From NCBI GenBank assembly GCA_016180645.1, contig JACPAV010000013.1, forward strand, positions 1-64,000: a stretch of DNA of 64,000 bases, in the 5' to 3' direction. Shown in pieces: positions 24,450 through 28,237 of this stretch (positions are counted from its first letter, which is position 1; each line of letters begins with the position of its first letter). This DNA comes from Nitrospirota bacterium (GTDB lineage Bacteria; JACPQY01). A model generated the notes under the pieces. The model was not told the DNA's origin, ran no database searches, and saw only the letters and a list, made by a program, of their open reading frames with translations. Made by a program: the position numbers and the translations under genes.

Positions 24450-25148
24450 ATGGATTCACGAAACACGTGGATGTCGTATGCTTTGCTGGTGGTTGGCGCG
24501 CTTGTGCCGTGGCTCGCCACGTACGTGGAGAGCGGCCGGCTCCCGCGCACGCCTGAGGAGACCACTTCCGAGTTGATCACCACCGTGTTCATTCTGTTCC
24601 TCGGGTATGCCGGACTCTCCATCATCCGCAAACAGAACACCGTACTGCAGGAACAAAACCAGCTTCTCGAGACACAATCGCGTACCGACGGCCTGACCGG
24701 GTTGTACAACCACCGCTCGTTTCTGGACGCGCTCAGGGCCGAGGTGAAATCCGCGGAGCTCCGCGGCAATCAACTTTCTCTCGCGTTTCTGGACCTGGAC
24801 GGTTTCAAGGAACTCAACGACTCCCTCGGACATGTGGAAGGAGACCGCATCTTGAGGGAGGTGGCCAAACTTCTGCGCACGCATCTGGGGCGGGTGACCG
24901 AATGGGTGTTTCGCTATGGCGGAGATGAGTTTGCCGTGATCGTGCCGGGGAAATCGAGCGCTCAGGTGGCCCAGATGATCGAACCTCTGGTGGGCGATTT
25001 GGAACTGAGCAGCCACGGGCGCTGTTCGGTGAGCGCCGGCGTGGCGCAGTGGAAGCGGGGGATTTCCGCCGGTGATCTGGTGAAGATGTCGGACAGCGCC
25101 ATGTACCGGGCGAAGGACAATCAAGAGAGCCGGGTGGTGGAGGCGTAG
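24450..25148 (+). CDS. Membrane diguanylate cyclase
   Basis: Two TM segments, DGLTGLYN, DLDGFK..ND..GH..GD, RYGGDEF. Confidence 0.95.
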   Translation: MDSRNTWMSYALLVVGALVPWLATYVESGRLPRTPEETTSELITTVFILFLGYAGLSIIRKQNTVLQEQNQLLETQSRTDGLTGLYNHRSFLDALRAEVKSAELRGNQLSLAFLDLDGFKELNDSLGHVEGDRILREVAKLLRTHLGRVTEWVFRYGGDEFAVIVPGKSSAQVAQMIEPLVGDLELSSHGRCSVSAGVAQWKRGISAGDLVKMSDSAMYRAKDNQESRVVEA

Positions 25149-25334: not shown

Positions 25335-26780
25335 ATGACCGCTCAAATCCCCCTCGAACAAATCGACGACGTCCGCTGGCGGATTCCCGCGTATGGCGAC
25401 ATGCGTGTGGACGGCATCGTGTTCGCGTCGAAGCAGCTCATGGATGCGATCCGCACGGATCAGAGTCTCCAGCAGGTGGCGAACGTGGCGACGCTGCCCG
25501 GAATTCAGAAAGCCTCCTACGCCATGCCGGATATCCATTGGGGTTACGGTTTTCCGATCGGGGGAGTCGCCGCCTTCGACATGGACACCGGCGTCGTTTC
25601 GCCGGGCGGGGTCGGATACGACATCAACTGAGGAGTGAGACTCCTGCGCTCCGGTCTGGAGCGCGAGGAGGTCGAAGCGCGAAAGCGCGATCTGATCCCG
25701 GCCCTGTTCAGTCGCATCCCCACCGGCGTCGGCTCCCACGGCGCCTATGACCTGAACGCCCGCGAAGAGGACGAGGTCTACTCCCGCGGTGCCCAGTGGG
25801 CCGTGAGCAAAGGGATGGGACTCCACGAGGATCTCCAGCATATCGAGGAGAACGGCTGTTTTCCGAATGCGGAGCCGTCCGAAGTGAGCGATCGCGCGAA
25901 GAAGAGGGGTCGTCCCCAACTCGGCACGCTCGGATCGGGGAACCATTTTCTCGAAATCCAGTACGTGGAAGAAATCTACGACGATCCCGCCGCGAATCAG
26001 ATCGGCCTGTTCAAGAATCAGGTGGTGGTGCTCATTCACACGGGGAGCCGGGGGTTCGGACATCAGATTTGCGACGATTCCATCCAAGCCATGCTCCGTG
26101 CCTCGCAAAAATATGGAATCCAACTGGCCGATCGCCAACTGTGTTGCGCGCCGATCCGAAGCGCCGAGGGCCAGAGCTACCTTCAGGCGATGGCCTGCGG
26201 TGTGAACTATGCGTTCGCCAATCGACAGCTCATCACGCACGGCGTTCGGGAAGTCTTCAGGGAGTTCTTTGATAAATCCGAGAAAGATATCGCTTTGTCC
26301 GTTGTCTACGATGTGTGCCACAACATTGCCAAGATGGAGCGGCACAAGGTGGGGAGCGTGGAGAAGGAGTACTGCGTGCACCGGAAGGGGGCGACTCGGG
26401 CCTTTGCGCCGGGACACCCGAAGGTGCCGCAGGACTATCGCAAGATCGGCCAACCGGTGCTGATCCCGGGGGACATGGGCCGGTACTCCTACGTGCTGGT
26501 GGGCACCGAAGGGGCGATGGGAGAGGCATTCGGCTCGACCTGTCATGGCGCGGGCCGGCAGATGAGCCGGACGAAGGCCAAGCAGGTGGCGCGAGGGCGG
26601 AATATCGAACACGAGCTCGAAGGGCGCGGTGTCGTCGCGCATTCGGCCACACGAGCGGGTCTCGCGGAGGAGATTTCCGAGGCCTACAAGGACGTGGCCG
26701 ATGTGGTTGACGTCGTCCACCGTGCGGGTCTTTCCCGCAAAGTCGCCCGGCTCCGCCCGATGGCCGTCATCAAGGGGTAG
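25335..26780 (+). CDS. rtcB: RNA 3'-phosphate/5'-OH ligase RtcB, 481 aa, with predicted selenocysteine at codon 99 (TGA 25629-25631)
   Basis: [59 protein letters not shown] all in one frame across the TGA. Confidence 0.93.
25641..25670 (+). promoter_or_regulatory. Candidate bacterial SECIS element
   Basis: CTCCTGCGCTCC-GGTCT-GGAGCGC(G)AGGAG hairpin starting 9 nt after the TGA; loop resembles the GGUCU apex of the E. coli fdhF SECIS. Confidence 0.8.
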
Positions 26781-26791
26781 GGACAAGTTTC

Positions 26792-28237
26792 TTGGATTGG
26801 CGATTTCTTCCTTCCGCCATTCAGGGCTTGGGGGGCGTTCCAAGGCCGATACGAGTTCTCGTGTTTCTGCTGATGGCAGTTGCCGTTGGATGCGGTGGCT
26901 CTGAAAAGCCCAAGCCTCCCTGTGGGGAGGACGAACTGAGCGTTATCCATCCCGAAATCGTCTTTGCCAATGTGGGCCGGGGCGCCGCCTTTACCACCTC
27001 CGCGAAGTATGTTCGGGCCGATTGCGAGGAGACGGCTCTACCGGTGAATCTGGAGGCTGATTCAGGCGTCGAAATTCGGCGCGTTGGGGATGAGACCTCC
27101 CTCGTCCCGAAGGTTGAAGGCACGCACACGATCCTTGTGTCGGCGACTTACGAGGGGATGGAAGTCCAGGCCACGGTCAAGCTGGTGGCGCTTGGGAACG
27201 CTACAGTCGAGGGAGCGTACGTGGTCCGAACAAGAAACGTCGTGCGAAGGCTCGATTCACCTTTCAGCGAGGGCTTGGATTGGTTCTTCGGATGCTACGG
27301 AGAGATGGTAGCCACTTCTCACTTCGTGTCATGTATTGGCGCGCCATTGATGGGGACACAGGTAGTTAGCCCGCGACTCGATCGGCTGCTGGTTGATTCG
27401 GGCGTCGGCGTAATCTTGCTCCCTTACATCTGGGGACTGGGTGGCGACGGCCCACTCTTGGGGAGAGCCAGCTCGCTTTCGCCGGTACTGATGGTTGATG
27501 AAATCTCACCGGACGCAGGCATTTTGAGAACCGCCACGTATGAACCTCCGCCGAATCCGATCCGGGAAAGACTAGACGAGGAATCTTGTTCCCTCCGCAA
27601 AAAAACAATGTGCCCCGGTCGGCTTGCGAATCGTCCGAACAACGTTGCTATCGAAGGCAACCTCGTCGCGATGACCGATCTCCTGGGCGGCCTGTACCTC
27701 CTTCGATACGTCGACGGGACTCTTGTCGAACTCGCGCGCACGTATCCGACTTCCGAATTGAAGGTGCGCGGAGAGTCCGAACACCCCATCCCCGTGGTCC
27801 TGGATGGAACGTCATTGTGGATGTTCTACGGGGGAAACTTTGTCGTTCACGACATCTCGGAGGTGGCATCACCACGCATGATCGCAAAAGGAACGCTTCC
27901 CCGCGGCAGCCTTCCGATCACGGCTCGTTCGGGCCGCCTCTGGCTGATCGATGGGAGCAGGTTGGAGGTCGATCGGCTGGAAGGGGGAATTCCGGTCAAG
28001 AGAGATGAATTTGATCTGGGTAGCCGGGTAGCAGGTTTGGCCGTTCTCCGTTCGCGTGTCGTCCTGCTCGGGGACACTTCTTTGGTCGAATTGGAGGCCG
28101 ACGAAAGCGACAAACTGAGACCTCTTCGCAAGATCGCCCATTATGGGGCTGGAATGGGTGGAATCGCCTATGCGCCGGACGGTTCGATTCTCGCGGGCGG
28201 TTACGGCTTCATCCTCCGGATCGCCTCCGCGCCATGA
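26792..28237 (+). CDS. Hypothetical lipoprotein, beta-rich or propeller-like; start uncertain
   Basis: Long ORF with a hydrophobic stretch and AVGC lipobox. Confidence 0.6.
   Translation: MDWRFLPSAIQGLGGVPRPIRVLVFLLMAVAVGCGGSEKPKPPCGEDELSVIHPEIVFANVGRGAAFTTSAKYVRADCEETALPVNLEADSGVEIRRVGDETSLVPKVEGTHTILVSATYEGMEVQATVKLVALGNATVEGAYVVRTRNVVRRLDSPFSEGLDWFFGCYGEMVATSHFVSCIGAPLMGTQVVSPRLDRLLVDSGVGVILLPYIWGLGGDGPLLGRASSLSPVLMVDEISPDAGILRTATYEPPPNPIRERLDEESCSLRKKTMCPGRLANRPNNVAIEGNLVAMTDLLGGLYLLRYVDGTLVELARTYPTSELKVRGESEHPIPVVLDGTSLWMFYGGNFVVHDISEVASPRMIAKGTLPRGSLPITARSGRLWLIDGSRLEVDRLEGGIPVKRDEFDLGSRVAGLAVLRSRVVLLGDTSLVELEADESDKLRPLRKIAHYGAGMGGIAYAPDGSILAGGYGFILRIASAP

Follow-up and report, generated by a model that had tools for sequence, protein, structure and literature searches.

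A candidate selenocysteine-containing RtcB RNA ligase in a Nitrospirota bacterium and the recurrence of its in-frame UGA among bacterial RtcB genes

The rtcB locus and its in-frame UGA

The DNA considered here, hereafter called the window, is a stretch of 64,000 nucleotides from a Nitrospirota bacterium (JACPQY01; NCBI GenBank assembly GCA_016180645.1, contig JACPAV010000013.1, positions 1 to 64,000 of the forward strand), in which the gene of the RNA ligase RtcB is interrupted by a single in-frame TGA. An earlier note on this DNA had described two fragments of one reading frame split by the TGA, had placed this codon at the metal-bridging cysteine of RtcB, had pointed to a hairpin immediately downstream, and had proposed a selenocysteine (Sec) enzyme. 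As ways of checking the proposal, it named a search of the genome for selA, selB, selC and selD, a survey of homologues for TGA/Cys pairs and for a conserved, covarying hairpin, a comparison of the hairpin with a bacterial model of the Sec insertion sequence (SECIS), and an inspection of the reads for TGC or TGT.

On translation, the frame running from the ATG at 25335 to the TAG at 26778-26780 has the TGA at 25629-25631 as its sole interruption and shows no frameshift; the two fragments, i.e., open reading frames (ORFs) under translation table 11, the one ending at 25631 and the other starting with a GTG at 25635, do lie in the same frame and read through as GVGYDIN-TGA-GVRLL. Against the Pfam family RtcB (PF01139), the read-through product scores 593.7 bits (cut-off 27), with residues 47-481 covering positions 1-426 of the 426 of the profile, and its matches among solved structures are TTHA1785 of T. 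thermophilus (2epg; 597 bits) and the RtcB PH1602 of P. horikoshii (1uc2/4dwq; 561 bits). Apart from the gene at 25335-26780, the genome has no RtcB match. Gene callers reduce it to a fragment of 381 residues starting at the GTG 25635, which is present as a called protein in the database; the expectation that standard pipelines would call a pseudogene was not borne out, this fragment carrying no pseudogene flag. As for the codon itself, among the 57 open frames of the window that reach 300 codons or more, 28 end in TGA, which is thus an ordinary stop in this organism, whose genetic code is not reassigned.

When the read-through product is aligned with the structure of P. horikoshii RtcB, codon 99, i.e., the TGA, falls on the Mn-bridging Cys98, in agreement with the position given to it beforehand, and the other metal and guanosine monophosphate ligands are kept (Table 1), among them His404, which we take to be the guanylylated histidine. 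The claim that both halves of the gene retain their remaining RtcB motifs with no other lesion stands likewise. In the P. horikoshii enzyme, as set out in the accessible text of PMC10630183, one Mn2+ is bound by Cys98, His234 and His329 and the other by Asp95, Cys98 and His203, while His404 sits in the active-site pocket. The same text describes proteins with alanine in place of the equivalent RtcB cysteines as ligase-dead (PMC10630183), and the cysteine binding both Mn2+ ions is termed "invariant" in that of PMC12263435.

An intein is also connected with this position. The NCBIfam model NF038162 (intein-containing RtcB) aligns with the read-through product as two segments separated at residue 98, and the archaeal intein insertion point, for which the available part of PMC4150793 gives Cys98 as the splice junction, coincides with the Sec site.

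Table 1. Positions of the features discussed, in window coordinates unless a handle of another genome is given
Feature	Position	Strand	Remarks
rtcB coding sequence	25335..26780	+	481 codons including UGA99, then TAG stop; single frame and Pfam match
Asp96 codon	25620..25622	+	corresponds to metal ligand Asp95 of P. horikoshii RtcB (structure alignment)
TGA within the frame (codon 99), putative Sec codon	25629..25631	+	aligns with Mn-bridging Cys98 of P. horikoshii RtcB
Hairpin of the bacterial SECIS type	25641..25670	+	lower stem 25641-25645/25666-25670; upper stem 25646-25652/25658-25664
Bulged G 25665 and apical loop GGUCU 25653-25657	within hairpin 25641..25670	+	12 bp in total
His204 codon	25944..25946	+	corresponds to metal ligand His203 of P. 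horikoshii RtcB (structure alignment)
His235 codon	26037..26039	+	corresponds to metal ligand His234 of P. horikoshii RtcB (structure alignment)
His329 codon	26319..26321	+	corresponds to metal ligand His329 of P. horikoshii RtcB (structure alignment)
His404 codon in STCHGAGR	26544..26546	+	corresponds to His404 of P. horikoshii RtcB (structure alignment)
rtcB remnant in genome G001	G001:C1:20849-21193 (L042 1501-1845)		unrelated sequence upstream

A SECIS-type hairpin downstream of the UGA

Folding reproduces the structure described earlier at 25641-25670, namely a 12-bp stem with one bulge and a GGUCU loop. Folded alone, this hairpin has an energy of -21.0 kcal/mol and a z-score of -3.76, with 1 of 200 shuffles as good. 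The model of the bacterial SECIS (bSECIS) published in PMC13188914 provides, in the legend of its Fig. 2, for an apical loop of 3-9 nt, an upper stem of 4-16 bp, a G within the first two nucleotides of the loop, and a distance of 16-37 nt between UGA and loop with a minimum free energy of at most -7.5 kcal/mol. Scoring relied on a script of our own that implements this model. The comparison proposed with a bacterial SECIS model came out in favour of the hairpin, which falls within all four constraints of the script, with a GGUCU loop, a stem of 7-8 bp, a spacing of 21 nt and an energy of -21.9 kcal/mol.

Selenocysteine machinery of the genome

The genome amounts to 4.72 Mb in 65 contigs and is 97% complete. 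The protein genes selA, selB and selD were found with scores of 556, 369.8 and 356.9 bits, and the tRNA-Sec gene selC with 73.3 bits (anticodon tca by ARAGORN), each above its curated cut-off, so that the four genes named for this check are all present. The selD gene (G000:C25) itself carries a single TGA, near position 1531 of the locus L008, in the context ALARCAG-U-AGKIGPG, followed by the hairpin GUCCAGG-GGA-CCUGGAC. In the table of PMC13188914, the Sec motif of selenophosphate synthetase is given as UxxK. Through the Sec-TGA of selD, the organism thus possesses one gene or more belonging to a selenoprotein family that is already established.

Recurrence of the UGA among RtcB genes

A degenerate DNA pattern standing for G-[YF]-D-I-N-TGA-G-V was scanned over a collection of species genomes and returned at least 120 stretches, the chance expectation being estimated at about 13. 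When 80 of these loci were fetched, all except L084, a chance match, proved to be RtcB genes carrying TGA in place of the Cys codon (79 loci), and most of them, where the locus is long enough, have 381-383 open codons past the TGA. Judged by title, the carriers belong to the Thermodesulfobacteriota, "Deltaproteobacteria," Nitrospirota, Acidobacteriota, Binatia, Gemmatimonadales and Eisenbacteria, among others; Thermodesulfovibrio, Syntrophorhabdus and Desulfarculaceae relatives are represented among the TGA forms. Of 401 genomes sampled within one carrier's phylum, 326 give an RtcB match at E <= 1e-60; exactly one TGA occurs in 44 of the 150 RtcB matches listed (counted by hand and with the seed genome included, a further 184 matches lying outside these 150), and in the 14 matches with TGA that were fetched from this sample the TGA lies every time at the Cys codon.

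The metagenome relatives were found by peptide patterns away from the site, which leaves this set unbiased for the codon. In the best 80 of them, the site is occupied by TGC (61), TGT (12) or TGA (7) and by nothing else, and each of the seven genes with TGA has 383 open codons after it. The TGA/Cys pairs looked for in homologues therefore exist, TGA, TGC and TGT all occurring at the site of codon 99.

A FastTree phylogeny was built from 96 complete sequences (64 Sec and 32 Cys), 32 incomplete loci being left out. The Sec and Cys forms interleave in this tree, with at least 10 changes between Sec and Cys, and well-supported branches make a minimum of 4 of these unavoidable; some Cys clades are nested in Sec grades, e.g., L173, L177, L182 and L176 (Cys) within L092, L170 and L171 (Sec). 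As the Sec sequences come mostly from the TGA pattern scan and the sampling is uneven, the proportions in the tree mean nothing, but the interleaving is what a real Sec/Cys family usually shows. The window protein groups loosely (support 86) with the Acidobacteriota Sec form L102.

The hairpin across Sec and Cys forms

The SECIS script passes 82 of 93 TGA forms vs. 7 of 34 Cys forms, and among the seven passing Cys forms are L172 and L179, both of which still carry the ancestral hairpin. Several versions of the hairpin can be distinguished. GCGCUCA-GGUC-UGAGC(C)GC is found in the majority of the delta and Acidobacteriota forms, and a version with a 7-bp stem and a 5-nt loop is found in the window and 12 others. 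The Binatia-type hairpin, GAAGACC-GGUCU-GGUCUUC, departs from the window's in both partners of several base pairs, the encoded peptide changing too.

Since the hairpins of the TGA forms outside the Nitrospirota fall in three registers, the window-type register was tested alone. In its 15 sequences, a group picked partly by pairing, 91.4% of the cells are paired, compared with 68.2% after shuffling (the observed value being reached by 0 of 500 shuffles) and 30-45% when the partner is slid, and changes on both sides occur in 5 of the 7 pairs of the upper stem. The Nitrospirota clade (20 sequences) exhibits a longer, two-part hairpin, for which, on the RNAalifold structure, 95.4% of the cells are paired vs. 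48-58% when slid and compensatory changes occur in 5 of 12 pairs. The G demanded by the bSECIS model is mostly missing from its loop, and this long hairpin may constitute a distinct SECIS class.

Close Cys relatives form a decay series. In L172 and L179 (TGC) the hairpin is kept; in L180, L186, L187 and L188 (TGT) it is half-decayed, one arm being mutated (UGAGC to UUCGC); in more distant Cys forms there is no hairpin. Such Cys-type genes with an intact or half-decayed hairpin look like snapshots of a recent conversion from Sec to Cys. On the question of a conserved and covarying hairpin, the answer is thus that it is kept and covaries in the TGA forms and is mostly absent from the Cys forms.

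Weighing of the evidence

UGA99 of rtcB very probably encodes Sec, since it stands at the position of the metal-binding Cys, is followed by a SECIS-type hairpin and recurs in many bacteria. As far as sequence comparison goes, the window gene would be a well-formed member of a genuine and apparently undescribed selenoprotein family, Sec-RtcB. The candidate of the earlier note, i.e., a Sec RNA ligase of 481 residues, thereby gains support from the Sec machinery, the homologues, the hairpin, the SECIS model and the check for sequencing error.

A number of observations weigh against this reading. When the hairpin is folded in a 57-nt context, the z-score is only -2.03 and 7 of 200 shuffles are as good. 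Among the TGA forms, 11 of 93 fail the SECIS script, 8 of these 11 belonging to the Nitrospirota clade, and ungapped RNAalifold applied to all 67 distinct TGA sequences from outside the Nitrospirota returned no consensus structure. The register groups having been picked partly by pairing, the percentage paired in the window-type sequences is favoured; in addition, the hairpin sequences are related and so not independent, and the difference in mean fold energy at +12 to +44, i.e., -10.2 kcal/mol in TGA forms vs. -5.2 kcal/mol in Cys forms, is taken between sets that differ in guanine plus cytosine fraction (0.58 for Sec vs. 0.48 for Cys). Further early stops are present in L089, L116 and L118, the first of them, the Gemmatimonadales match (G045:C3:2772-4202), having four TGAs; these three may be decaying copies or assembly errors. 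In L116 and L118, the early stops lie 86 and 324 codons, respectively, after the Sec site.

The lineage of the window also calls for caution. The search of genomes and metagenomes yielded no close relative of the window gene, the best match being 64-65% identical and no metagenome match exceeding 64%, so that selection on the TGA is evident for the family and not for the lineage of the window. TGA is absent in all 30 relatives with an RtcB match, which are at most 58% identical except for a decayed remnant in G001. The latter, the sole genome of the same family (84% complete), retains of rtcB only the terminal ~115 codons, which are 78% identical and contain a TAA in frame; as nothing more than this remnant is kept there, rtcB may be dispensable in the group of the window. 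Lastly, an engineered P. horikoshii RtcB with Sec98 spontaneously cleaved a nearby peptide bond, as reported in the available part of PMC4150793, from which it follows that Sec at this site is not automatically benign. Natural Sec-RtcB genes recur widely and presumably tolerate it.

Several of these observations could be accommodated by a pseudogene, in which a nonsense change from TGC or TGT to TGA would have killed rtcB in this lineage, the hairpin being incidental. The decayed remnant in the only genome of the same family, the splitting of the gene by gene callers into a fragment of 381 residues and the modest z-score in the 57-nt context all speak for it. It is nonetheless very improbable, considering that the 481 codons hold no second lesion, that the same TGA is shared by 79 of the 80 loci fetched, from several phyla and with open frames after it, that it is also present in 7 of the 80 unbiased metagenome relatives with 383 open codons each, that the hairpin covaries, and that the genome encodes the full Sec machinery. 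A sequencing or assembly error for TGC or TGT would be conceivable in a draft genome of 65 contigs but is scarcely credible, as the TGA recurs in many other assemblies. Moreover, 0 differences are seen at 25629-25631 in contigs independently built from four public runs (word depths 37.7, 9.13, 10.3 and 4.3), although the four runs belong to one study and three of them may be the source of the assembly, so that the reads are not independent; on the point of TGC or TGT in the reads, the contigs from all four runs keep TGA. In one of the runs, X1, several short contigs match 25590-25630 only, with 1-2 differences, and diverge past this conserved stretch just ahead of the TGA; probably they represent the RtcB of other members of the sampled community.

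Other explanations accept a functional gene and differ in what becomes of the UGA. It could be read as something other than Sec, whether as Cys inserted by the Sec pathway when selenium is scarce, as Trp by a near-cognate tRNA, or as part of a selenium-dependent switch. Cys does occupy the site in 73 of the 80 metagenome relatives, but a conserved SelB-type hairpin at fixed spacing, along with selA, selB, selC and selD, indicates Sec as the designed outcome, and this kind of read-through is very improbable. As for Trp in particular, the ligase-dead proteins obtained with Ala at the equivalent cysteines (PMC10630183, in the text available) suggest that Trp at UGA99 would probably be inactive. 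A programmed stop could instead divide the product into an N-terminal piece of 98 residues and a piece of 381 residues re-initiated at the GTG 25635, the two maybe assembling. This GTG lies 3 nt past the TGA, and the 381-residue fragment exists as a called protein; the split product, however, would be without the essential metal-bridging residue, and such a scheme gives no account of a break falling always on the Cys codon or of a SECIS-type hairpin after it, which makes it highly implausible.

Proposed mechanism and comparison with known systems

If UGA99 encodes Sec, as we consider very probable, SelB with Sec-tRNA(Sec) would bind the hairpin at 25641-25670, the loop of which lies 21 nt past the UGA, and Sec would be put in at UGA99 in place of termination, following classical SelB-dependent recoding. 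By homology, the product would be a 3'-phosphate/5'-OH RNA ligase of 481 residues, in which a selenolate would replace the Cys thiolate bridging the two catalytic Mn2+, beside Asp96, His204, His235 and His329. The rest of catalysis would take the RtcB route, namely archease-assisted guanylylation, activation of the RNA 3'-phosphate and sealing.

Compared with Cys-type RtcB (TTHA1785, PH1602 and human RTCB), the predicted protein is alike in length, fold family and other active-site residues, and an archease partner is also encoded in the genome of the window; the difference resides in a UGA and a SECIS hairpin standing for the Cys that binds the two Mn2+. With E. coli fdhF-type genes, it shares an in-frame UGA, a hairpin within the ORF directly 3' of it, a small loop starting GG(U) and the existence of Cys homologues, the GGUC loop presumably resembling that of fdhF. 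Unlike in these genes, the host protein is a guanosine triphosphate-dependent RNA ligase and not an oxidoreductase, Sec in RtcB would bridge two Mn2+ and not ligate Mo/W or Ni, and the hairpin of the Nitrospirota Sec-RtcB is longer, with a loop mostly devoid of the G of the model. Sec has been placed at the identical active-site position in the engineered P. horikoshii RtcB U98 (Haruna et al., 2014, PMC4150793), which, according to the available text, was made at a UAG codon via EF-Tu and with no SECIS.

The benefit that Sec would most likely bring, as judged from sequence and homology, is protection of an oxidation-sensitive active site or an altered metal affinity. Eukaryotic RTCB needs thioredoxin, together with PYROXD1, against oxidation of its cysteine. 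The accessible texts of PMC12263435 and PMC10630183 describe the RTCB cysteine as prone to metal-induced oxidative inactivation, from which it is protected by PYROXD1 in animals; a Sec ligand could thus resist irreversible oxidation or shift metal affinity. That Sec at the Mn-bridging site is adaptive, either because an oxidised selenolate is readily re-reduced or because the affinity for metal or the choice of metal is tuned, is a possibility put forward tentatively, the balance leaning somewhat to the other side. Were it true, RNA repair and nucleotidyl transfer would gain in Sec-RtcB their first selenoenzyme, which would also be the first case of a Sec ligand in a binuclear Mn site.

Novelty and significance

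No report of a natural Sec-containing RtcB was found in the literature searched. Table 1 of PMC13188914 (2026), self-styled "the most comprehensive inventory," comprises 119 families or subfamilies of prokaryotic selenoproteins, and the terms "ligase," "RtcB," "splicing," PF01139, UPF0027 and "rtc" are all absent from the main text of this review, that table included. Likewise, "ligase," "RtcB" and "splicing" are absent from the main texts on deep-Sep and BSepDB, the supplementary tables of which (e.g., BSepDB Table S2) may list more families. The earlier note had presented Sec as a metal ligand as a departure from the redox role of most selenoproteins. Of this claim, the enzyme class and the Mn-bridging role of Sec are the new points and stand, whereas metal binding by Sec is not unprecedented, binding of atoms or moieties, in most cases metals, being predicted for about 20% of selenoprotein families according to the same 2026 review (PMC13188914, in the part available).

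With a natural and widespread Sec-RtcB, the prokaryotic selenoproteome would gain a family that does not consist of oxidoreductases. The active-site Cys of RtcB is held to be invariant and an oxidation-sensitive weak point (PMC12263435 and PMC10630183, in their accessible texts). Sec-RtcB genes would amount to a natural experiment on Sec vs. Cys as a ligand of binuclear Mn. There is also a consequence for annotation: current gene calling truncates such genes, here to 381 residues, and the same TGA is found in at least 120 stretches from species genomes.

Genomic context

A scan for promoters and terminators around rtcB gave nothing useful, and no tRNA genes were found within the 64-kb window. 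The neighbours of rtcB are a GGDEF-like ORF at 24450-25148 and an ORF of 481 residues with unknown function at 26792-28237. The archease gene is intact (110 bits) and lies on another contig (G000:C44:89310-89804), i.e., not adjacent to rtcB. Among 111 further RtcB loci, with Sec and Cys forms pooled, 79 contain archease, mostly directly beside rtcB.

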